Below are positions 3,001-28,408 of a stretch of 60,995 nucleotides of DNA, piece after piece (the stretch's first letter is position 1; the number at the start of each line of letters is the position of its first letter). The DNA is taken from IMG/VR virus record IMGVR_UViG_3300029619_000004; one strand, given 5' to 3'. The notes under the pieces are model-generated. The model was not told where the DNA came from, made no database searches, and saw nothing but the letters and a program-made list of their open reading frames with translations. Both the position numbers and the translations under genes were made by a program. Source of the stretch: a virus.

Positions 3001-3837
3001 GAATCGGCTTGCTACCTGTTTTGCCATCAGCTCGGACATACCAAAATCCTGTATGGATGTCTTGGAAAAGTCCTGTATCATCTTCTCATAATTGCCAAAC
3101 GTAGTCCTTACAACGTTTTCTACTTCCGTCAACGAGGACGATATGTCGATTGCTTCCCCTAGCTTATGGAACGCTCTGAACAATAGCCAGTATGATGCAT
3201 ATAATTTTCCAAATGCAGAAGCAAGGGAAAAGCTGTTTATCTTTGCACTTTTAGCCGACTTGCTAAAAACATTCAGACTACTTGCAAGGGAATTAGCCGC
3301 ACGACCACTGGAAGCACCTGTTCTTGCCAACTTCGCCAACGCATTAGTCATGTCAATAAGGTTTCTGTTTACTGTCGGTGCTTTGGAAAGCGTTGTCATA
3401 AGCCCCTGCATCGCTGTAGCAAGTTTAGGGATATTCTCTATAGCCTTAGTTGACGATTTATAACCTAACTGTGAAATTCCTTTTGCCAGTTCTGATATCT
3501 GTGCAGTAGCAGAACTACTAGCCTGAATATTTCCAAATGCTTTACTAAGCTGGTTCATAGAGGATGCCGCACGATTGATTTTAGTTGTGTCTACTGTGGA
3601 TATCTTCTCTATGCCCTTTGCAAGCCTTGTAAAATCAGTAGTCTTTACATTATTCATGCTCTGCATGGCATTTGAAAGCCTATTCACACTATTTGCAAGA
3701 CCATTCAAATTACTGGTATTAATGCTGTTCAATGAAGTAGACAGTTTATCAAGTTTTGTAATCAGCTTGTCAATCGCATTATTCGCCTTTGTTGCCTGCG
3801 CTTTAATTTGAATTTCCAGTGAATCTATCTCTGCCAT
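1..3837 (-). CDS. tape measure protein, N-terminal 1279 codons (continues across the circular junction to 60462)
   Basis: Minus frame is open from ATG 3837-3835 to the window edge, so it has no stop here and is absent from the ORF track. The frame matches ORF 60462..60902 through the overlap, giving 1423 aa in total. Ala/Ser/Asn-rich helical sequence with Trp-rich PWFxxEKW-type repeats near 60-420. Confidence 0.8.
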   Translation of the reverse strand, partial: MAEIDSLEIQIKAQATKANNAIDKLITKLDKLSTSLNSINTSNLNGLANSVNRLSNAMQSMNNVKTTDFTRLAKGIEKISTVDTTKINRAASSMNQLSKAFGNIQASSSATAQISELAKGISQLGYKSSTKAIENIPKLATAMQGLMTTLSKAPTVNRNLIDMTNALAKLARTGASSGRAANSLASSLNVFSKSAKSAKINSFSLASAFGKLYASYWLLFRAFHKLGEAIDISSSLTEVENVVRTTFGNYEKMIQDFSKTSIQDFGMSELMAKQVASRFQAMGVAMGFSQKNMANMSLELTKLTADMASFYDMSQTDVARNLQAIFTGETEPLRKYGLDLTQATLKEWALKQGLDADITSMTQAQKAMLRYQYVMQNTAAAQGDFARTADTWHNQITVLTQSFQQLASIIGGALINAFKPFVRTLNQVMQYVIAFAETVTNALGSIFGWQYEVSAGGVAEDWADGMEDFSDATGDAAKNAKKLKNNILEIDELNINSGDNDKNGSGAGGGASKVDKTQGGLVQVDTIFKGYESGIKSLEGLGKTINAALNKAMDNVDWNKIYKKADNFGKGLANFLNGLISPRLFSNVGKTIANSLNSALHFLDSFGTTFDWRNFGESLAEGVNSFFRNFDFGLLAHTINTWANGLLDTMITYLKKVKWSYIGYKIGDFISKIDFKGILSKVGQVIWQAINAAIETYIGIFSAAPIETAITTSVLLLKFTGLGASIAEKLKGVINTAIASVLESGITWSIAIPLSITLLANKLDSTFIDLELAKFGEEQSKKYGDTFNNIAEKAKNLTDRIRETNEAFREQINTKDENILFLETLADKYGALSSKTNLTADEQKLLTQYTQELISKMPELNEYYDSENEKLTITTDKLKELITQKEKQIRLEAISEQWKETLKQEAEAQMQVKENAQNLSKAQEDLAYWTGICNDELEKSGGNANLAPYQDEVSKASQAVEEFSNVLKENKQQLDLISEQSSFYEEMYNSISIGAEEAKTTARTNGQNVASEYASGISDNASMSTEEIDAMVNNATTQLESINNTAYDSGKNMVSEYSQGAKDESNSTDYSELGENIVAGITEPMGDSNSELTIGDVVSRFFDKFVGKIKDVFGIHSPAEEMKPLGENIFLGIIEGFTSLFDTFTEKINEFWENYVLPWFTVEKWTELLGNILVAAQTKWDEIVEWWNGTALVTWWEESVVPWFSLEKWLEVLNNVKESFNTKWTETSTQWVANLTKWWTVNVAPWFTKKKWDDVLSKVPVAFKDAFKAAANGAIGFLN

Positions 3838-3892
3838 ACTGCACCTACTTTCAATTGTTAAAGTGAGTGACTATCTCCAACCGATAGCCAGT

Positions 3893-3924
3893 AAAAAAGG
3901 CAGTAGACTATGACCTCTACCGCC
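3893..3924 (-). terminator. intrinsic terminator between endolysin and tape measure gene
   Basis: Minus-strand RNA GGCGGUAGA-8nt-UCUACUGCC (9 bp, one G-U) is followed by UUUUUU. It lies just downstream of the endolysin stop. Confidence 0.6.
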
Positions 3925-3930
3925 CCTGTG

Positions 3931-4806
3931 TTATCTTTTCAGATATTCTCTTGTTACTTTTCCTGCCTTGCAATCCACCGTGATTCCTACACGTTTTTGG
4001 AAAACTCCGATTGCACTGGCTGTATCATTTCCCAATATACCATCAATGTTGCTCTTGCCTTTTGCATTTGTGGCAGGCAGGCACTTATGATAGATAAGTT
4101 CCGTCTGTAGCCATTTCACATCATCACCACGCATACATGGGAATTTCTTATATAATGTACGTGTAGGCTCTGCATATGGGTTATTGTGCGTGTCGTAGAC
4201 GGTCTGTAATTCGTTTAATTCCCTGTACCATACATTCATATCAACGTTGCCATTAACGCCGCTTACAGTACCTTTTGATGTGTACTGCCAGCCTACCATG
4301 TTTTCAATCTGCGGCTGGTACTTCAAGTCCATGTTTCCCTTATTCTTTCCATATGCCGCAATCCACATAGGATATTTCACACCGCCATACGGCTTGATGT
4401 AGGAATTATAGAAAGACTTTCCAGTATACACACCGAATGCAAGCCCATAACTTCTGATAACATCACCGTAAGCGTTGATAATGTCAATCAGCTTGCTTCC
4501 CAGTCTTTTCTGGCAGTTGTCCTCAACGTCCAGCCATACCATTGTCTCACGACCATTAAGAATTTCTGCTACTTTCCTTGCATCATTTCTAGCCTTTGTA
4601 ACTGTTGTCGCATAACTATAGTTGTAAACGCCCTGTATCGTCAATCCGTTTTCTTTACAGCCTGACCAGTTAGCTTCAAACTGCTTATCACGGTTCAAAT
4701 CTTTACGGATGATTTTAAGGATGGCAAACTGGATGCCGCCTGCCTTGACTTTTGCCCAGTCAATAGTTCCCTGATATGCCGATACGTCTATACCGATATA
4801 ACTCAT
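3931..4806 (-). CDS. endolysin: GH25-type muramidase with C-terminal peptidoglycan-binding domain
   Basis: N-terminus GIDVSAYQGTIDW...VWLDVE...WQYTS matches the GH25 lysozyme pattern. The C-terminal GDDVKWLQ...GILGNDTASAI..FQ region resembles PG_binding_1. The ATGA start/stop overlaps the upstream gene. Confidence 0.8.
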   Translation of the reverse strand: MSYIGIDVSAYQGTIDWAKVKAGGIQFAILKIIRKDLNRDKQFEANWSGCKENGLTIQGVYNYSYATTVTKARNDARKVAEILNGRETMVWLDVEDNCQKRLGSKLIDIINAYGDVIRSYGLAFGVYTGKSFYNSYIKPYGGVKYPMWIAAYGKNKGNMDLKYQPQIENMVGWQYTSKGTVSGVNGNVDMNVWYRELNELQTVYDTHNNPYAEPTRTLYKKFPCMRGDDVKWLQTELIYHKCLPATNAKGKSNIDGILGNDTASAIGVFQKRVGITVDCKAGKVTREYLKR

Positions 4807-5276
4807 TTTTTATCATCTTCTTTCTTTTTGTGATTCAATTCAAAATTAACTCTCATGGCTTCCAATTTTGCCACGAACAGCTCTCTCTGTCTGTCCATTT
4901 CTTCTTCCGATAATGGCTTATTCTTTTCTTCAAGTTCTTTCATAATTGGCTTATCAATGTAACTGCTACGTGCTTTTCTGCCATTCAAGCAATGGTCAAT
5001 AGCAACCGTAAGGGCAGATATGCCATAAGAGCCAAACATAGCCCATGCATCATTATCTTTTTTCTGATTTTCCAGCCTGTATGCTTGTGCATATGGCTGT
5101 AGGTCAGCAGGGCAAGACCAGTCTATATCATGTATCGTGAGTCCATACCCCTTAGTGACCAGTAGCCAATAAGGACGTATTTCCTCACAGTATAATTTCC
5201 ATGTTAATTCTCGGCTTTCTTCTTGTTGTCCGAGTTCGCCTGTGCTTTCTCCACTTCCTTCTCGAACATCTTTTTT
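4803..5276 (-). CDS. gpT-like -1 frameshift extension of the tail assembly chaperone (G-T fusion spans 4803..5632)
   Basis: The -1 frame is open without stops from the slippery site (5276-5270) to 4803. It runs into track ORF 4803..5039. Confidence 0.7.
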   Translation of the reverse strand, partial: KKDVREGSGESTGELGQQEESRELTWKLYCEEIRPYWLLVTKGYGLTIHDIDWSCPADLQPYAQAYRLENQKKDNDAWAMFGSYGISALTVAIDHCLNGRKARSSYIDKPIMKELEEKNKPLSEEEMDRQRELFVAKLEAMRVNFELNHKKKEDDKK

Positions 5277-5632
5277 AAAAAACCGTTAGATGTTAACTCT
5301 TCCTCTAATTCTGTGAAAAAGTCTGTGATATCTACATCACCAGTATCTACATAATCGCCGACAAGAGAAAAGGCTTTATTCTTTGCTTCTTCGTAGCCGT
5401 CATTTGTGTCCATATTGTAGCCAAACTCATCAGAATGGAATTTCTGCAAGCCTACCAGAACCATTTCAGGTACAAATAAAAGCATATTCTCAATCTGTTC
5501 CAGATTTTCTTCTGCATCCTGCTTCGTATTTACAGTCATTTTTGCAACTCTGGAAAGTAATCTTGATTTTAATGTTGGCTCATATCCAAATTTGATTGTG
5601 TATTCTTTATCATTTACTTTGATTGTTAACAT
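5204..5632 (-). CDS. tail assembly chaperone (gpG-like)
   Basis: 142-aa acidic protein directly after the major tail gene. It contains the slippery run near its 3' end. Confidence 0.7.
   Translation of the reverse strand: MLTIKVNDKEYTIKFGYEPTLKSRLLSRVAKMTVNTKQDAEENLEQIENMLLFVPEMVLVGLQKFHSDEFGYNMDTNDGYEEAKNKAFSLVGDYVDTGDVDITDFFTELEEELTSNGFLKKMFEKEVEKAQANSDNKKKAEN
5270..5284 (-). promoter_or_regulatory. programmed -1 frameshift slippery run GGUUUUUUAAAAAAG
   Basis: In the zero frame it reads GGU UUU UUA AAA AAG, which contains the heptamers U_UUU_UUA and A_AAA_AAG. Confidence 0.7.
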
Positions 5633-5660
5633 ATCTATTCCCTTTCCCTTACTATTAGTA

Positions 5661-5692
5661 AGAAAGGGGGCAGTCCTAAGACCGCCCCTGTT
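5661..5692 (-). terminator. hairpin/attenuator after major tail gene
   Basis: Minus RNA GGGGCGGUC-UUAG-GACUGCCCC (9 bp, one G-U) is followed by a CUUUCUU tail and preceded by an A-run. The U-tail on the minus strand is weak. Confidence 0.35.
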
Positions 5693-5704
5693 TTTTTATC
5701 TAAC

Positions 5705-6178
5705 TTAGGTAAACGCTACCTTTGTTTCCATTCCCTTGTATTCCTCGATTGTAAGGTTCATTTCAAGGGTAAGCAACTCATTCTGTGCAAACTCTGGTGC
5801 AGGAATTGCTGTAGGTGGCTGTGCCACAACAAAGAAAGCCTTTTCAAACTTAGGAATAATGGTCTCAAACCACATTCTCTTACCACTTGTCAGCGCTGTG
5901 TAAGTAGAAATTACCGTTTCCCACTGCGTAAGTGTTTCTGTTGTAAAGTTAATAGTAACTGCAAATGAACCGCCTGTATCACCACGCCCCTGAATGTATC
6001 TGGAAACCAAATCTTCCAGTGCAGATGCATCAATCTGTTCATTCTCGATTGTGATACCGCCGATAGCATTAATTCTGTCCAACTGGGTAAATGTATCTGG
6101 TTTTGTTCCTGCTGTATCTTCTACGCCATACCCAAACGTAATACCCAGACTGGATAAGCCAGCTATTGTTGCTGCCAT
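5705..6178 (-). CDS. major tail protein
   Basis: 157 aa. Lies immediately upstream of the chaperone G/GT pair, the conserved siphovirus order. Confidence 0.6.
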   Translation of the reverse strand: MAATIAGLSSLGITFGYGVEDTAGTKPDTFTQLDRINAIGGITIENEQIDASALEDLVSRYIQGRGDTGGSFAVTINFTTETLTQWETVISTYTALTSGKRMWFETIIPKFEKAFFVVAQPPTAIPAPEFAQNELLTLEMNLTIEEYKGMETKVAFT

Positions 6179-6245
6179 ATATACCGTCCTTTCTACCGCT
6201 AATTAATGCGGTCAGTGACACACTCTGTTGTGTGCCAGTTAATAG

Positions 6246-6668
6246 TTATTGTAATGGGTCAAGCGAACCGATTGTTCGTGTAGCCCTAAATGTTGCCGTC
6301 CTGATTTTATTGGTTATCGTATAAACAGGATTGCTTATCTCAAACCTTTTCCATTTAAAAAAGTTGATAGCCGTTGCGGTCATATCAACTAATTCTGCCC
6401 TGTCTTCTGCTTTTTCACCTTGGTAGTTAATAGTGATCTGAAATGTTGGTCTTACAGCGTTTATCCGCTCGCCTGTTAAATCCTGTCCTGCTTCTGTAGC
6501 ACCAATCTGTCTCATTAGAACTGTCGGAAATTTGGGCGTTCCTGTGACTGCTTCATCCTGCGTCAGATACAGGTTCTTATACTTGCTTCCATATGCCAGC
6601 TTCATTTCATGTGAAAACATGTTGAATAACTGGTCTTGCAATCGTAAAGCCCATGAATTATCAATCAA
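6246..6668 (-). CDS. head-tail joining / tail terminator candidate
   Basis: Called on position alone, between the gp10-like and major tail genes. Confidence 0.35.
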   Translation of the reverse strand: MIDNSWALRLQDQLFNMFSHEMKLAYGSKYKNLYLTQDEAVTGTPKFPTVLMRQIGATEAGQDLTGERINAVRPTFQITINYQGEKAEDRAELVDMTATAINFFKWKRFEISNPVYTITNKIRTATFRATRTIGSLDPLQ

Positions 6669-7194
6669 CGGTGAACACCTCCTTGGCAGTTTCCATTATC
6701 AAGTCTCTAAGTTCATTAGCCGTGTAGTACATGAATGGTCTGCTAGGCATACCCTCTGTAAACCACCATTGACCGTTATCGTCACGGTAAAACCATCCGT
6801 AGCGTCCGTCTGCCAACTGTCTTATGGTCTTACCGCTTGCATACTCCCATGTAACACCGTCTGGTAGTTTGCCTGGATAAGGACTTTGTTGTCCGACAAT
6901 TCCTGTTCCGAACTCTACGAACAATGCGTGGTCTGTTCCTGCCACAACCGCATATATCCCACCGCCTTGCACATCTTTTACGTGTTCAGCGTGTATACTT
7001 GAATTAAGTTCGTATGTGAATATTGCATCAAGTGAAGCAACATATGTCTGTGCAATCTCTACGCCCTTTTCAGCGAGTTTTTCAGCTAACATCCTACATT
7101 TATACTCTAACGAATTTTGATAGCTTCTCAGCTCCTTTATGACGTTCTGTACGGATTTCTGTGATAATGTCATGGAGATAACTTTCTTTGCCAT
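6661..7194 (-). CDS. HK97 gp10-like head-tail protein
   Basis: The FVEFGTG motif and its position match the HK97 gp10 family pattern. Confidence 0.55.
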   Translation of the reverse strand: MAKKVISMTLSQKSVQNVIKELRSYQNSLEYKCRMLAEKLAEKGVEIAQTYVASLDAIFTYELNSSIHAEHVKDVQGGGIYAVVAGTDHALFVEFGTGIVGQQSPYPGKLPDGVTWEYASGKTIRQLADGRYGWFYRDDNGQWWFTEGMPSRPFMYYTANELRDLIMETAKEVFTVD

Positions 7195-16673: not shown

Positions 16674-17015
16674 ATGGCACAGAACCAAAAATCTTATGAC
16701 AACGAATTTAAAGCACAGGCGGTAAAGCTTGCACAGGAAATTGGCGGGCATAAAGCAGCTAACGAATTAGGTATCCCTAAAGGTACTATGTACACATGGA
16801 TCAAAGCATTTAAGGAAGGCCGCCTCAGTGCAAATGAAGCAGTTCATACCCCCAAGAATGCTTTATCCCTTAATGATGAGCTTATCGAACTCAGGAAACG
16901 TGTTAAAGAGCAGGATAAGGAAATACGCCGTTTAAAGGAAGAAAACGAATTTCTTGAGGAAGCAAGTGCTTTTTTCGCAGCCAGCCGTCGGAAGTCAGCA
17001 AAAAACAGAGATTAA
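16674..17015 (+). CDS. IS3-family transposase OrfA (HTH)
   Basis: YDNEFKAQAVKL...GIPKGTMYTWIK HTH plus a leucine-zipper-like tail. The slippery A_AAA_AAC lies near its 3' end. Confidence 0.85.
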   Translation: MAQNQKSYDNEFKAQAVKLAQEIGGHKAANELGIPKGTMYTWIKAFKEGRLSANEAVHTPKNALSLNDELIELRKRVKEQDKEIRRLKEENEFLEEASAFFAASRRKSAKNRD

Positions 17016-17920
17016 TGTTTATTGCAATTAAAACGGATGACGGCAGGATTAAGGGCAAAATTTCTTTTTATTGTAAAGTGCTTCATGTTTCCAGACAGGC
17101 ATTTAACAAATACCTAAAAACAAAAGATGCTCCTTGGAAATATCAGGCACTGGCAGATGCGATGATTGATATATGTAGTGAGGATGAATGCAACGACACG
17201 TATGGAAGAATCCGTATGTATCAGGCATTACAGCTAAAACATCCTGAAGATGTACACATTCCCGGTGAAAGAACTGTTTATCGTATCATGGAAGAACTTG
17301 GTCTTAATCATAAGCCGAAACGCAAGCCCAACGGCATTACAAAAGCTGATAAAGAAGCCCGTAAATCAGATGATTTAATCAAACGAGATTTCTCAGCCCA
17401 AAAACCTCTTGAAAAATGTATTACAGACATGACCGAAATAAAAGCTTCCGATGGAAAACTGTATGTTTCAGCTATCTTTGACTGCTACGATCTGGCAGTG
17501 CTGGGGCTTGCTATGGATACAAATATGAAGGCTACCCTTTGTGAGCGAACTTTAGATAATGCTTACAAGGCATATCCTATGCTTCGTGGAGCTGTTCTTC
17601 ACAGTGACAGAGGCACACAGTACACAAGCGAGTTATATCGTAAAGCAATCAATAAATATGGTATTCTTCAGAGCATGAACAGTGCCGGTGGCAGATGCCA
17701 TGACAATGCCAGATGTGAAAGCATGTGGGCACGCTTCAAAGAGGAATTACTTTATGGGCGTTATGACACCACCACAATGACTGTAGAACAGTTAAAAACC
17801 CTCATCTGGAGATACTTCATCAGCTATTGGAATAACCGGAGGATTTGCTCTGCTAACGGGGGGTTACCTCCGATGGTTAAGCGACAGCAATACTATGCTT
17901 CACTACAGGAGGCTGCATAA
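17015..17920 (+). CDS. IS3-family transposase OrfB (DDE/rve catalytic domain)
   Basis: Lies in the -1 frame relative to OrfA. The DMTEI, HSDRGTQYTS and ESMWARFKEE motifs fit a DDE triad. Confidence 0.85.
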   Translation: MFIAIKTDDGRIKGKISFYCKVLHVSRQAFNKYLKTKDAPWKYQALADAMIDICSEDECNDTYGRIRMYQALQLKHPEDVHIPGERTVYRIMEELGLNHKPKRKPNGITKADKEARKSDDLIKRDFSAQKPLEKCITDMTEIKASDGKLYVSAIFDCYDLAVLGLAMDTNMKATLCERTLDNAYKAYPMLRGAVLHSDRGTQYTSELYRKAINKYGILQSMNSAGGRCHDNARCESMWARFKEELLYGRYDTTTMTVEQLKTLIWRYFISYWNNRRICSANGGLPPMVKRQQYYASLQEAA

Positions 17921-19935: not shown

Positions 19936-19982
19936 CGGTAACGGTAGGAGTCGAACCTACATAACCGTTTGAGTACGTTACC
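19936..19982 (-). ncRNA. tRNA-like acceptor/T-arm minihelix (47 nt)
   Basis: The minus RNA reads GGUAACG-UA-13nt-GUAGG-UUCGACU-CCUAC-CGUUACC-G. That gives a perfect 7-bp acceptor, U8A9, and a perfect T-arm with a canonical T-loop. There is no D or anticodon arm. Confidence 0.5.
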
Positions 19983-20382: not shown

Positions 20383-21050
20383 ATACAAATGTATATGCTA
20401 GATGATTCGCTACAATCTCACAATTTGTAGTTACTGCTTCTTTGTGTATGCTTTGGTGGTCGCAAGTGACACACTACTCACAAGTTCTTGTACACTCCAC
20501 AGTCGTAAATTCCCGACTAAGCCATCGGTACATACCTATAAATTCTTTTTTATTGATTAGATATAGGTTTTAATCTAAATAGCTTTTCCTTTCTTAATAT
20601 TTTTTTGCTACTTGGTTTTCGTAGACTCACACCGTTACTCAATCTTTACCATCAAGGTTCTACCCTATAGTTAACAAGACTTTTTCAACTTGTACTGGCT
20701 TATATTTCCTAAGATTTCAGTGGTTTTAAGTTACCAACTAATACTCTGGATTTTGAGTATCTTTGAGTACATTGACTCACATTTAATTCTGTTTTTAGTT
20801 ACTTATATTTCCTCCTTTTTGTTTTTGAAAATTCACCATTTACCAGCCTTGTGTAAAATCCATCAGCATTACAATTAACTGAACAAACATTTCCCAAGGA
20901 TTTTGTAAAACTTTACTGCTTCAACTTTGTTCTTTTAGCTTTGATAGAAATAAGCTTTGATTTTTGAGTTTTAAGCATTGAACTTTACCCTTTAATCTTT
21001 ACAGTAAATTTTTGTTTGTAAATTGCCTATACCAGTTCGGCTATGACTCT

Positions 21051-21120
21051 ATCCCGAATCAGTTGGATTTGAACCAACAAAACATTTACCCATTCCTTAT
21101 GCAAAAGAAAAGTTTTCGGG
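21051..21120 (-). ncRNA. degenerate tRNA-like element
   Basis: Perfect T-arm GUUGG-UUCAAAU-CCAAC. The D-loop-like GGAAUGGGUAAA is shared with element 19523-19663. It has only a 6-bp CCCGAA/UUCGGG closing helix and no anticodon arm. Confidence 0.3.
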
Positions 21121-21203
21121 TTTCTTTTTGTTTGCATAAGTCTATGCCCGAAAAAGACTTATGAATTGTAGTTTAGGATTTTCAGTAAACAGTGAATGTA
21201 ATG

Positions 21204-21851
21204 TTAGTATTCTATCGTAATTTCTGTCAGTGCATTGGAAACTGATAACTGTGAATCAACCTCTGTCAAAAATCCAGATGTAATTTTGTCAATATCATCA
21301 ATTTTCTCAAGTACACCGATAGGGTCTACCAGTTCAAACTGGTTAGAAGTTATGAAATCATTTCTGACTTTCTCAATATCCGCAGCATTTGTTTTGCTGT
21401 CTTTCTGACCGTAGATAGCAGTTACATACTGGTCTGCTCTTTCTTCAAGACCGTTTCCATTTTCTTTTGATATTGTTGCCTGTGCCTTTGTGTAATCTCT
21501 CTTCATGGCGCTTGAAAGTCTCTGCTCAAATTCTATGCCATGGTTTTTCATTTCTATTGCTTCTGCAACTGTATATTCAACGCCGCACACGCTAACTTTT
21601 GTAACCGCATTAGAAAGAACCACAGCACGTTTAATAGCTTTTCTCCTGTTGATCAAGTCAACAGCCTTATCGTAGTAAGACCTGATATTCTTTTCAATTT
21701 GCGTAACGTCAGTTCCAGCAACCTTATCTGTCGAATGTTTCTTAGCGCAACAGTAAACAGGCGTATTAATAGCCGTTTCAATTCTTGCATCTAACACCTT
21801 TAATTCTGACAGTGCCTTGTGGATAGTCATCGTTTCTCTTGTCATTTTCAC
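21204..21851 (-). CDS. hypothetical protein (215 aa)
   Basis: Long ORF with good coding appearance. No motif recognised. Confidence 0.6.
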   Translation of the reverse strand: MKMTRETMTIHKALSELKVLDARIETAINTPVYCCAKKHSTDKVAGTDVTQIEKNIRSYYDKAVDLINRRKAIKRAVVLSNAVTKVSVCGVEYTVAEAIEMKNHGIEFEQRLSSAMKRDYTKAQATISKENGNGLEERADQYVTAIYGQKDSKTNAADIEKVRNDFITSNQFELVDPIGVLEKIDDIDKITSGFLTEVDSQLSVSNALTEITIEY

Positions 21852-26187: not shown

Positions 26188-26582
26188 ATTAGTGCTTAAT
26201 TGTCAACACTTAATTAGTGCTTAATTCAAATTATTTTTTCATTTTGTCCATTCTTGCCAGTTCTTCTAATATTAACTGTCTCGCAAATGCGCTTGTTTTT
26301 AATCCATATGCATTTATTCTGTCTACTGTGCCTTGCGGTAATATTATGTTTATTCTGTCTCTGCTTTCCATACATTTTTTTACTGCTTGCCTGTTTTTTA
26401 GCACTTTCTCATTTTCTGTTACTGCCATGCTTCAAACCTCCTTTGCATTGTTATAACTACATTATATATATTAGTGCTTAAATAGTCAATAACTTTTTAG
26501 TGCTTAATAATGATGCACAATTTCTGATATGATATTAGTGCTTAATTTTGTGTGTTTTGTCAATATACATTAGTGCTTAATT
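26188..26582 (+). repeat. six direct copies of TTAGTGCTTAA(T/A)(T/A) flanking the RHH gene
   Basis: Copies start near 26189, 26214, 26471, 26497, 26535 and 26570, all in the same orientation. The last two overlap the plus-operon promoter. Confidence 0.7.
26231..26428 (-). CDS. ribbon-helix-helix (Arc/CopG-like) DNA-binding protein
   Basis: RINIILPQGTVDRINAYGLKTSAFARQLILEEL fits a beta-strand/helix/helix pattern. Confidence 0.55.
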   Translation of the reverse strand: MAVTENEKVLKNRQAVKKCMESRDRINIILPQGTVDRINAYGLKTSAFARQLILEELARMDKMKK

Positions 26583-26631
26583 TATGTATAATAAAAGTAT
26601 CAAATGAAACGCAGAAAGAGAGGAAAACAAT

Positions 26632-26886
26632 ATGATTATAGGAACTTTAACAGATGGAACAAAATGCGTATATGATTTACCAAACAACATAAAGACAGCC
26701 GAGGAAATGCAAAGCCTTGTATATGGCTACAACAACGGCAGAATGGCAGAAAGTCAACGACCAGAGCTTTACAATCAGCCCAAATTATTAAGCCTCAACG
26801 GTCCGATGTGGAACGGTTGGGGAACTCTTAAAAGCACAGGCGAAACAGTCGCAATTATTCGCTATGAAAAGCCTAGCAAATTTTAG
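26632..26886 (+). CDS. hypothetical protein (first gene of plus-strand operon)
   Basis: GAGAGGAAAACAAT RBS. 84 aa. Confidence 0.55.
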   Translation: MIIGTLTDGTKCVYDLPNNIKTAEEMQSLVYGYNNGRMAESQRPELYNQPKLLSLNGPMWNGWGTLKSTGETVAIIRYEKPSKF

Positions 26887-26952
26887 CCGAAACGCTCCGA
26901 TCTGGAGCGTCAGCCGCGGGACGGTCGCCGTGGCTCTGATGATGGCAGACCA
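26884..26952 (+). ncRNA. hammerhead ribozyme, type II (HH1), predicted cleavage after C26911
   Basis: Read 5' to 3': GAAA 26889-92; stem III ACGCUCC-GAUCU-GGAGCGU; GUC 26909-11; stem I AGCCGCGG-8nt-CCGUGGCU; CUGAUGA 26936-42. Stem II is short (GGC/GCC) with one extra U. Loop I GGUC can pair with GACC 26948-51. Confidence 0.7.
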
Positions 26953-26964
26953 GAAAGGGAAAAT

Positions 26965-27354
26965 ATGAAAACGTTAAAATTTGAAAACAATAAAATCTAT
27001 AGTACCTCTTCACTTTTTGAAAAAACTGATGTTTTTGAAATCGTGGAAAAAATTCCGGTTCGCTTTTTTGTCTGGAATATTGGTGAAAACATGGGAACGC
27101 ATGAATATATTCCGGTTTGCGAAGACTTGCACCCAGAATACAAAGACAATTACGAGATCAACACGGCAACACTTAAAGCCGTAAAAGTTGCACCGGATGA
27201 ATGGGAAAAACTCAACAAAGCGGCATCTTGGGGAGTTGGAAACCTCAAGCAAGCAGAAAAAGCCTTAAAGAGCAAACGCCACGGCTACACGTCCGACAGA
27301 AAAAGAGCTGCCGCAGAACTCACAATTGAAATTTTTCGCAGAATTTGCGAATAG
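26965..27354 (+). CDS. hypothetical 129-aa protein bracketed by two hammerheads
   Basis: AAAGGGA RBS. The ORF lies entirely between the two predicted cleavage sites. Confidence 0.6.
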   Translation: MKTLKFENNKIYSTSSLFEKTDVFEIVEKIPVRFFVWNIGENMGTHEYIPVCEDLHPEYKDNYEINTATLKAVKVAPDEWEKLNKAASWGVGNLKQAEKALKSKRHGYTSDRKRAAAELTIEIFRRICE

Positions 27355-27416
27355 TCGAAACCGCCAAAAGGCGGTCTGCAGGAACTGCCCCACCTGCACT
27401 GATGAGACAGGGCGCA
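27346..27416 (+). ncRNA. hammerhead ribozyme, type II (HH2), predicted cleavage after C27376
   Basis: Read 5' to 3': stem II UGCG/AAUA/GUC pairs with GAC/AGGG/CGCA; GAAA 27357-60; stem III ACCGCC-AAAA-GGCGGU; GUC 27374-76; stem I UGCAGG-10nt-CCUGCA; CUGAUGA 27399-405. Loop I CCCC can pair with GGG 27410-12. Confidence 0.85.
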
Positions 27417-27426
27417 TAATGAAAGG

Positions 27427-27714
27427 ATGGTTGATTTTATGACAAAAGCAGAATTGTTGAAAGAATTTGACAGATTGGAAAAGGAAAAAGGAGTACACAT
27501 TGAGGGAATTTATTACAATAGCAAGAAAAGTGTTATAGAAAACGCTATAGAATGCCTAAAATGCCCGGATGAACTGCTAAACAAGTATTTGACCGTTTTA
27601 AGTCTCAAATACCCAAATACCGGGCGCGTGATTGCTGAAAATGGAGATTTTAAGCACCACAGCCACAACCGGCTCTATGTATTTAATACAGCACGGCAGA
27701 TTTTAGCAAGTTAG
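27427..27714 (+). CDS. hypothetical protein
   Basis: 95 aa. GAAAGGATGG RBS. Confidence 0.55.
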   Translation: MVDFMTKAELLKEFDRLEKEKGVHIEGIYYNSKKSVIENAIECLKCPDELLNKYLTVLSLKYPNTGRVIAENGDFKHHSHNRLYVFNTARQILAS

Positions 27715-27757
27715 GCAAGCGGCGGCGTTTACCGGGGTTCGATTCCCCGACTTGCTT
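27705..27757 (+). ncRNA. tRNA-like acceptor/T-arm minihelix (53 nt) overlapping a stop codon
   Basis: Reads AGCAAGU-UA-19nt-CGGGG-UUCGAUU-CCCCG-ACUUGCU-U, followed by a U-run. That gives a perfect 7-bp acceptor, U8A9 and a canonical T-arm. Confidence 0.5.
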
Positions 27758-27765
27758 TTTAAAAC

Positions 27766-27789
27766 ATAGCCTAGAATTAACTAGGCTAT
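27766..27789 (+). terminator. hairpin ATAGCCTAG-aattaa-CTAGGCTAT (possible attenuator)
   Basis: Perfect 9-bp stem. The U-run is separated from it by several nt. Confidence 0.35.
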
Positions 27790-27820
27790 TATTATATAAT
27801 TTTTTTAAGAGGTGGTTAAT

Positions 27821-28408
27821 ATGTATTATAAAAACGTGGATATAAAAGATTTAGAATCTATACTAAAAAAAGGCATTCTATCCATGGACGAGTGCAAAAA
27901 TAATAACTGGGATGACGGAAGAAGAGCAAATAATCCGACTAATGTTGTTTACTTATTTAAGCCTAAAAATCGAAATTGCTTAGTAATGTACGGACTAATT
28001 TTGCTAGAAATCCAGGAAGAAATAAACGCAAGCCATGTAGAGTTTTGCAAAAATGATTACAACGCGGAAAATTACGATGAATTTATCGTTGATCGTGTTG
28101 CTCCGCAAGAAATAAAAGCCATTTATGCGCCTTTATTTTTAAAAGATCGCATATCCGTTATGCTTACAAAAGATGTTACTAGTCGCATAACATGGGTGGA
28201 ATTTAAAGCGTATGTATACACTCCAGATACAGCACAGGCGGTCAAATTTGGTCGTTTTGGTTCTGGATATAGAGAATGCAGCGCATACGAATATTCGCTG
28301 ATGCAAAAAGACAGTTGTAATCTAAGCACTAACGATTTTAATTATTTTAGAGGATTTGATAAAAACAAACTTATATGTGATTATCCAATATTAGATTATA
28401 TTTTTTAG
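27821..28408 (+). CDS. hypothetical protein (195 aa, AT-rich)
   Basis: AGAGGTGG RBS ahead of ATG 27821. No motif recognised. Confidence 0.55.
   Translation: MYYKNVDIKDLESILKKGILSMDECKNNNWDDGRRANNPTNVVYLFKPKNRNCLVMYGLILLEIQEEINASHVEFCKNDYNAENYDEFIVDRVAPQEIKAIYAPLFLKDRISVMLTKDVTSRITWVEFKAYVYTPDTAQAVKFGRFGSGYRECSAYEYSLMQKDSCNLSTNDFNYFRGFDKNKLICDYPILDYIF

Follow-up and report, generated by a model that had tools for sequence, protein, structure and literature searches.

Type II hammerhead ribozymes placed between the small genes of a gut phage operon

Two type II hammerhead ribozymes, HH1 and HH2, were identified in a viral DNA of 60,995 nucleotides (nt) recorded in IMG/VR as IMGVR_UViG_3300029619_000004 (the whole stretch is hereafter called the window), where they share the coding strand of an operon and bracket an open reading frame (ORF) of 129 codons, ORF129. 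Both elements possess the conserved core and the three-helix junction of the class, both are conserved in related phages with covarying helices, and each is placed exactly between the stop codon of one gene and the ribosome-binding site of the next. We consider it probable that HH1 and HH2 are active ribozymes, which serve as self-cleaving punctuation in a phage operon of small genes. An original prediction, made from the letters of the DNA alone, had drawn both elements as type II hammerheads with the conserved core, an A15.1-U16.1 pair and three helices. All of the segment coordinates in that drawing agreed with the sequence, as did the assignment of the two ribozymes to the coding strand of a single operon.

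HH1 (26885..26954, plus strand) scored 59.4 bits against the Rfam model Hammerhead_II (RF02276), the gathering score of which is 37 bits. Its stem II pairs GCC at 26886-88 with GGC at 26944-46. The 5' strand of this stem is followed by GAAA (26889-92), of which GAA at 26889-91 corresponds to G12-A14, and by a stem III of 7 base pairs (bp; 26892-98 with 26904-10) closed by A26892-U26910. The GUC triplet puts H17 at C26911 and the predicted cut between C26911 and A26912, after which come an 8-bp stem I (26912-19 with 26928-35) and the core CUGAUGA (26936-42). One extra base, U26943, is found after A9 and is scored as an insertion by Rfam; the G10.1-C11.1 pair beside A9 and G12 can form in HH1 only with U26943 bulged out. 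An extra base at this position is constant across the HH1 class, being mostly U, and A in locus L007.

HH2 (27353..27416, plus strand) has a canonical core and is supported by conservation and covariation; against RF02276 it scored 33.0 bits, below the gathering score, with E-values of 0.0075 for a search of the entire window and 3e-5 for a local one. The 3-bp stem II joins GUC (27354-56) to GAC (27406-08), with G27406-C27356 as the G10.1-C11.1 pair; GAAA occupies 27357-60 (core GAA, 27357-59), and stem III (27360-65 with 27370-75) is closed by A27360-U27375. H17 is C27376, the predicted cut falls between C27376 and U27377, and stem I (27377-82 with 27393-98) leads to CUGAUGA at 27399-405. When HH1 and HH2 were folded alone, the minimum-energy structure of each was a three-way junction with stems I and III looped and stem II open. 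The proposed pseudoknots between loop I and the tail beyond stem II were present in both ribozymes, namely GGUC (26923-26) with GACC (26948-51) in HH1 and GCCC (27387-90) with GGGC (27410-13) in HH2, and their equivalents covary in relatives as described below. One detail of the original drawing did not hold up. The distal extension of stem II proposed for HH2 (UGCG at 27346-49 with CGCA at 27413-16) was fully paired in only 16 of 84 distinct sequences of the HH2 class; the 5' strand of the extension belongs to a coding sequence, and its 3' strand overlaps and competes with the pseudoknot strand.

The two ribozymes did not arise as chance matches. Our own strict structural finder for type II hammerheads, run on both strands of the window, returned HH1 and HH2 only, while shuffled windows gave 0.02 matches on average. 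Given this expectation, chance does not account for two matches that share a strand, are separated by 465 nt and flank a single ORF. No other hammerhead or twister was matched by Rfam in the 61-kb window at E ≤ 1.

The comparison set consisted of 80 related viral contigs of ~55-62 kb each, and two covariance models, A1 and R1, were built from HH2-class sequences. R1 gave 133 matches in the window and the 80 related contigs, all of them on the strand of the ORFs. In essentially all 80 relatives, the stop codon of ORF129 is immediately followed by a hammerhead; the exceptions are one truncated copy, one that is cut off where its contig ends, and a few copies degenerated by point changes. A hammerhead also follows more distant homologues of ORF129 at 84% (Clostridium sp. 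CAG:510) and 63% (a Lachnospiraceae metagenome-assembled genome) protein identity, and in the latter stems I and III have been altered by compensatory substitutions. Among 107 distinct members of the ribozyme family, 99.6% of the cells were paired and 12 of 15 pairs changed on both sides; the covariation score in this alignment, which was fitted to the model, was 0.54, while shuffles scored 0.165 and slid partners no more than 0.064. The pseudoknot between loop I and the 3' tail had a mean best helix of 4.89 bp, compared with 3.75 ± 0.08 bp for permuted partners, and its two strands change together among relatives (GCCC/GGGC, UUGC/GCAA, UGGC/GCCA, GGUC/GACC, UCGCC/GGCGA and CUGACC/GGUCA). The core nucleotides are nearly invariant across the family, and degenerate copies are rare (L047 with G12A, L069 altered and L078 truncated). 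As a separate observation, the HH1 copy in L201 (2918-2995), a cultured-genome prophage on a Clostridium sp. CAG:510 scaffold, reads AUGAUGA. This change of C3 to A should break the C3-G8 pair, and the HH1 copy there is thus probably inactive.

The placement of the ribozymes relative to the genes is also a property of the family. In 88 of the 114 family matches (77%), the upstream stop codon, counted for ORFs of at least 30 amino acids (aa), ends 2-3 nt before G12 in the form UAG-UC-GAAA or UAA-GUC-GAAA, and the median distance from A9 to the next AUG is 22 nt. The conserved feature is that each gap between genes holds one ribozyme, whichever genes flank it. HH1 lies upstream of ORF129 in ~46 of the 80 relatives, and HH1-class units also occur elsewhere, so that they are found after ORF84 (the gene preceding HH1 in the window), ORF129 or other genes. 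In ~35 of the 80 relatives, the operon promoter and 5' untranslated region that precede ORF84 in the window are found directly upstream of ORF129, and a ribozyme is located only downstream.

If HH1 and HH2 punctuate the operon as we propose, its operator-flanked promoter would transcribe ORF84, HH1, ORF129, HH2 and ORF95 as one RNA, and each ribozyme would fold during transcription and cut itself after C26911 or C27376. The products would be an ORF84 RNA of ~313 nt, an ORF129 RNA of 465 nt (26912-27376) and an ORF95 RNA. The interval between the two cuts does measure 465 nt and holds the ORF at 26965-27354, and the earlier proposal that this RNA would carry 5'-OH and 2',3'-cyclic phosphate ends and be uncoupled from its neighbours stands as a prediction from hammerhead chemistry. 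Each upstream product would end, with a 2',3'-cyclic phosphate, one base past the stem III hairpin, while each downstream product would begin with a 5'-OH nucleotide already paired in stem I and have its ribosome-binding site after the pseudoknot tail. Thus, as a consequence of the type II topology, both new ends would be closed by hairpins. Cleavage in the cell would then bear on mRNA stability and translation, as each cistron could decay and be translated independently of its neighbours and would possess a constant 5' leader irrespective of the gene before it. Such a leader would suit this region of the genome, because its genes are swapped between phages as cassettes.

Several points weigh against this scenario. 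Cleavage, the promoter and co-transcription are, for the phage in the window, predictions drawn from its sequence. RNAs with a 5'-OH end can be marked for decay by RNase J1 in Bacillus subtilis, as exemplified by the product of the glmS ribozyme, so stabilisation of the cleaved RNAs would not be guaranteed. HH1 carries the extra base after A9, and many of the 80 loci are closely related to each other, so that counts over them are not independent. HH2 lies under the curated Rfam threshold (33.0 versus 37 bits), an outcome which the original prediction had itself named as speaking against a hammerhead; HH1 passed the same check. At the gathering score, Rfam detected the HH1 class everywhere and none of the HH2-class copies after ORF129 in the 20 loci tested, and the low score is thus a property of the model and not of the copy in the window. 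Our covariance model R1, the seed of which includes the window sequence, gave HH2 97.2 bits. Judging from the comparative evidence, which in our view overrides the Rfam threshold, the sub-threshold HH2 is genuine.

A further point against the scenario concerns core position 4. In the relatives, most HH2-class copies carry C4 (CCGAUGA, 55 distinct sequences) instead of U4 (26 distinct sequences); HH2 in the window, with U27400, belongs to the canonical but minority allele. U4C is reported by Perreault et al. 2011 to lower hammerhead activity considerably in vitro (PMC3088659), and beyond the rare viroid variant described there we found no further mention of U4C in the literature searched. The C4 majority, combined with the reported loss of activity, suggests that fast and complete cleavage may not be what is selected at the HH2 junction.

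Cleavage could accordingly be partial or conditional and set the ratio of multi-gene to single-gene mRNA, an alternative that we regard as possible but rather unlikely. Such regulation might operate through the core alleles (U4 or C4 in HH2, the bulge after A9 in HH1) or through a ribosome that, on terminating at the abutting stop codon, transiently unfolds stems II and III. With a stop codon 2-3 nt before G12, a terminating ribosome, given its presumed footprint, would have to cover the 5' third of the ribozyme. C4 is the majority allele of HH2, and its stems are as intact as those accompanying U4 (stems I and II are intact in 52 of 55 C4 copies and 25 of 26 U4 copies). The same allele is kept beside compensatory stem changes in the distant locus L202, which carries the ORF129 homologue of 63% identity, and U4C, albeit reduced in activity in vitro, was described as still biologically sufficient in a viroid (PMC3088659). 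Nevertheless, HH2 in the window has the canonical U4, and the abutting stop codons may reflect nothing but compact phage genomes together with the conserved A-G that opens the type II consensus in Rfam.

We are more doubtful of the idea that the ribozymes matter mainly as DNA, either as recombination boundaries or as passengers of mobile ribozyme-plus-ORF cassettes, with RNA cleavage being incidental or lost in some copies. Cassette order does vary among relatives, with breakpoints at the edges of ribozymes. In L012-type loci, the order is promoter, ORF129, HH1, an ORF of 78 aa and HH2, and the inserted block of HH1 plus the 78-aa ORF is flanked by duplicated TGCGAATAG. This sequence is the last 9 nt of ORF129, repeated at the far side of the insert (L012, 2879-2893 and 3214-3227), and a similar remnant, TTGCGAAAATTAG, was seen in L063 (~3196-3216). 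The duplicated end of ORF129 looks like the trace of a recombination or insertion event at the ribozyme's 5' edge. The GenBank phage collection contains no close relative of the window, and its sole match is a stretch of 100 nt over HH1, with 82% identity, in an otherwise unrelated and unannotated faecal phage, which shares the HH1 region only. The few inactivated copies (L047, L069 and L078, and HH1 of L201 with C3A) would fit a role at the DNA level as well. On the other hand, covariation in three helices and in the pseudoknot indicates selection on RNA structure and not just on DNA sequence, all matches are on the transcribed strand, and the core is nearly invariant with degenerate copies being rare.

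Two more specific ideas about the L012 order were considered and rejected. It cannot be a circular permutation of the window order, generated through a circular intermediate, because its additional ORF encodes an unrelated 78-aa protein and not ORF84. Nor does it reflect cut-and-paste of RNA-derived cassettes at cleavage sites, as the insertion boundary is the 5' edge of HH1 instead of the cleavage site, and the ribozyme after ORF129 in L012 is wholly HH1-like, not a hybrid. Type II hammerheads form longer arrays in other phages, with 4 to ~10 copies spaced 230-350 nt apart. L120 contains ~10 hammerheads (3612-6712, plus strand), each unit of which runs from a stop codon through a ribozyme and a ribosome-binding site to an AUG. 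Four hammerheads each are present in L088 (7479-8600, minus strand), where the Rfam gathering score detects only two of the four, and in L093 (6826-8049, plus strand).

The original prediction had raised one more possibility, which now appears highly improbable: that the 465-nt fragment is ligated, by RtcB or a reverse hammerhead reaction, into a circular and translatable ORF129 RNA, the junction of which would rebuild a hybrid hammerhead from the 5' half of HH2 and the 3' half of HH1. Ends with a 5'-OH and a 2',3'-cyclic phosphate are, by established chemistry, substrates of RtcB-type ligases, the hybrid could form a 3-bp stem II (GUC/GGC, with one G-U) and keep the HH1 pseudoknot, and hammerhead-bounded circular RNAs exist in eukaryotic retrozymes (PMC7229834). 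The bracket, however, is not conserved: ~35 of the 80 relatives have the promoter instead of a ribozyme upstream of ORF129, so that release of a fragment by two cuts is not a trait that this gene has kept. Stem II is absent from the minimum-energy fold of the hybrid junction, and the compatibility of the two stem II halves is trivial, with no sign of co-adaptation. HH1 and HH2 differ in all three stems as well as in their loops, and a ligated junction would not restore the same ribozyme. In L012 the cassette boundary is at the 5' edge of the ribozyme, not at the cleavage site, and a circle would bring no obvious coding gain as ORF129 has its own stop codon. Circular or spliced products were sought in comparable arrangements by Perreault et al. 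2011, and none was detected (PMC3088659). If the circle were real, hammerheads would for the first time be seen to make a protein-coding circular RNA in a DNA phage.

The arrangement itself is not new, as clustered type II hammerheads flanking prophage genes were already published in 2011. Perreault et al. 2011 described multiple hammerheads that flank single genes or short gene blocks of varying identity in prophages, among them a tandem pair in Clostridium scindens and a triple around ardA in Agrobacterium tumefaciens, and proposed that long phage transcripts are processed into single-gene mRNAs (PMC3088659). Complete cleavage in vitro was reported at every site in three tandem arrangements including that of C. 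scindens, and the tertiary pseudoknot between loop I and the segment 3' of stem II is shown in Figure 2A of the same paper (PMC3088659). The window resembles these clusters in its type II ribozymes with the loop I/tail pseudoknot, in the presence of several ribozymes per transcript, in the single small genes that are flanked and in the prophage setting; one of the published prophage contexts likewise has a Lachnospiraceae-type host. The genes and the phage are different, and HH2 of the window falls in a subclass that is missed by the Rfam threshold. The published PCR (polymerase chain reaction) primers for C. scindens matched neither the window nor any of the 204 loci. The stop-to-G12 and A9-to-AUG spacings and the downstream tRNA-like element, all quantified here, were not found stated in the searched passages of the 2011 paper (PMC3088659). 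What the present analysis adds is the stop/AUG spacing, the promoter-operator context, evidence for cassette shuffling and the HH2 class missed by Rfam.

Cleavage of three type II hammerheads in vivo has been observed in Desulfovibrio vulgaris by cyPhyRNA-seq (Olzog et al. 2021, PMC8782182). Two of these, loc 2 and loc 3, cleave both in vivo and in vitro and are similar to the pair in the window, being type II hammerheads on the same strand, ~313 nt apart and near phage-like and hypothetical genes (PMC8782182). The D. vulgaris host belongs to another phylum, whereas the pair in the window, known from sequence, brackets a well-conserved 129-aa gene in a defined operon. Cleavage of type II hammerheads in vivo in this bacterium, like that of the prophage clusters in vitro, supports the cleavage predicted for the window. 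In insulators of the RiboJ type, a hammerhead before the ribosome-binding site trims off the variable RNA on its upstream side and gives the new 5' end a hairpin, so that expression becomes independent of context. RiboJ, which was reportedly introduced by Lou et al. in 2012, is an engineered type III ribozyme of plant satellite RNA origin with an added hairpin. The ribozymes of the window are natural and of type II, and stem I itself forms the 5' hairpin; by analogy, they may represent a natural counterpart of the synthetic ribozyme insulators. In retrozymes and viroid-like RNAs, two hammerhead cuts yield an RNA with 5'-OH and cyclic phosphate ends, which tRNA ligase or an RtcB-type enzyme can circularise; the retrozyme ribozymes are identical repeated copies of type I/III, and the RNAs are non-coding and replicate or retrotranspose (PMC7229834). 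In contrast, the window has two different type II ribozymes, which flank a protein gene in the operon of a DNA phage.

ORF129 (26965..27354, plus strand), the bracketed cistron, is preceded by a likely ribosome-binding site, GAAAGGG (26954-60), and encodes a real, conserved phage protein of 129 aa. The family is very abundant in metagenomes (1140 clusters at 90% identity; 265 representatives at 50%) and shares the motif FEIVxKIPxxYFVWNIGxNMG...YIPLC. Its AlphaFold model, with a predicted local distance difference test score (pLDDT) of 96.2 and a predicted template modelling score (pTM) of 0.87, consists of a beta-sheet domain followed by three helices. Foldseek found no PDB fold matching the model (best E-value 0.15), viral matches in the structure search were uncharacterised proteins only, and no sequence match was found in Pfam, PHROGs, PADLOC or PDB.

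The operon is ordered as promoter, ORF84, HH1, ORF129, HH2, ORF95, tRNA-like element, hairpin and ORF198. A sigma-70-like promoter (26564..26592, plus strand) was detected by a promoter scan with 10/12 matches; it consists of a -35-like TATACA, a 17-nt spacer and a TATAAT -10 element (26587-92) with TG before it, and transcription is predicted from these elements to start near 26599. The promoter is embedded among four direct copies of TTAGTGCTTAA(T/A) (26471..26581, no strand assigned; repeat family D1). The copies lie between the ribozyme operon and a small, divergent RHH-like gene, ORF65 (26231-26428, minus strand; phrog_31631), and look like the operator array of a genetic switch. The operon is apparently under repressor control, and the TTAGTGCTTAA(T/A) region upstream of it is kept in relatives as well. 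A terminator-like scan found no site between the promoter and 27733. ORF84 (26632..26886, plus strand), the first cistron, ends in a UAG (26884-86) that abuts the 5' strand of HH1 stem II, and had no match in Pfam, PHROG or PADLOC. ORF95 (27427..27714, plus strand), the third cistron, more likely starts at AUG 27439, to judge from the spacing to an AAGGA ribosome-binding site. No family match was found for ORF95, nor for the next plus-strand gene, ORF198 (27812..28408; likely start AUG 27822). Between them, the terminator-like scan marked a 9-bp hairpin (27766..27789, plus strand), which is followed by an A/U-rich run and the ribosome-binding site of ORF198. This hairpin might terminate transcription weakly or instead fold at the 5' end of the following mRNA, and relatives have a different small hairpin (CCGGAAUAACCGG) at the same position.

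A tRNA-like element of 52 nt (27705-27757, plus strand) starts at the ORF95 stop codon and is followed by the small hairpin and the next ribosome-binding site. It comprises an acceptor-like stem of 7 bp, a short central hairpin and a T-arm (CGGGG-UUCGAUU-CCCCG), and its fold has a z-score of -2.45. The best Rfam match was mascRNA at 20.6 bits, below the threshold. The element is conserved in ~45 of the 80 relatives, always after the last hammerhead of the operon; it is 90% paired, no better than shuffles, in a sequence too conserved to show covariation. In L203, the tRNA-like element (3360-3410) was seen immediately behind the ORF129 homologue, at the position taken by a hammerhead in other phages. 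In tRNA punctuation of polycistronic RNAs and in the MALAT1/mascRNA 3'-end element, tRNA-like folds are cut by RNase P and RNase Z. The fold at 27705-27757 similarly sits between coding segments, but differs from those systems in having neither a significant family match nor a tRNA call. By analogy, the element may be an RNase P/Z processing signal; alternatively, a host tRNA attachment site may have left it behind as a remnant. On the minus strand, a second and truncated element of this tRNA-like type was noticed at 19936-19982, with a perfect 7-bp acceptor stem (GGUAACG/CGUUACC), a linker of 15 nt and a T-arm (GUAGG-UUCGACU-CCUAC). It scored 29.3 bits against the Rfam tRNA model (gathering score 29), and its architecture matches that of 27705-27757. 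ARAGORN called no tRNA at either position.

The window represents a temperate, siphovirus-like phage of Firmicutes, with gut Clostridia/Lachnospiraceae as hosts. It encodes an SPP1-type portal, major capsid protein E, a terminase, a GH25 lysin, RecT and a large serine recombinase, along with an anti-repressor and a tail-fibre protein. Most genes of the window are carried on the minus strand, and the ribozymes are in a short operon on the plus strand. A gene for an rve-family (insertion sequence-type) transposase of 301 aa (17015-17920, plus strand) lies on the strand opposite to that of the surrounding phage genes, which suggests an insertion sequence within the phage genome. Two further structured RNAs, RAGATH-18 (20431-20503, minus strand, 69.9 bits) and RAGATH-27 (21115-21196, minus strand, 77.1 bits), both above their Rfam gathering scores, are located just downstream of the tail-fibre gene (21204-21851; phrog_1491). 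RAGATH-18 is the guide-RNA scaffold of IS607 TnpB nucleases (PMC11061315). As no TnpB-like ORF adjoins the RAGATH-18 in the window, it is a solo copy in a phage.

It is conceivable that the hammerheads and the downstream tRNA-like element can replace one another within a single RNA punctuation system that serves shuffled gene cassettes of phages. If this is the case, the widespread C4 allele would be a natural way of tuning cleavage. A 2019 review regarded the role of bacterial and phage hammerheads as still unresolved (PMC6765202). The locus described here does not change the overall picture of that role, but nature provides in it a test case that is both clean and abundant. Because the Rfam threshold systematically misses the HH2 class, paired and arrayed hammerheads of phages are under-annotated. 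Gut phages hold hundreds of natural variants, including U4 and C4 alleles and ORF129 with and without an upstream ribozyme, and with such variants it can be tested directly whether the hammerheads of phages insulate single-gene messages and make them more stable.

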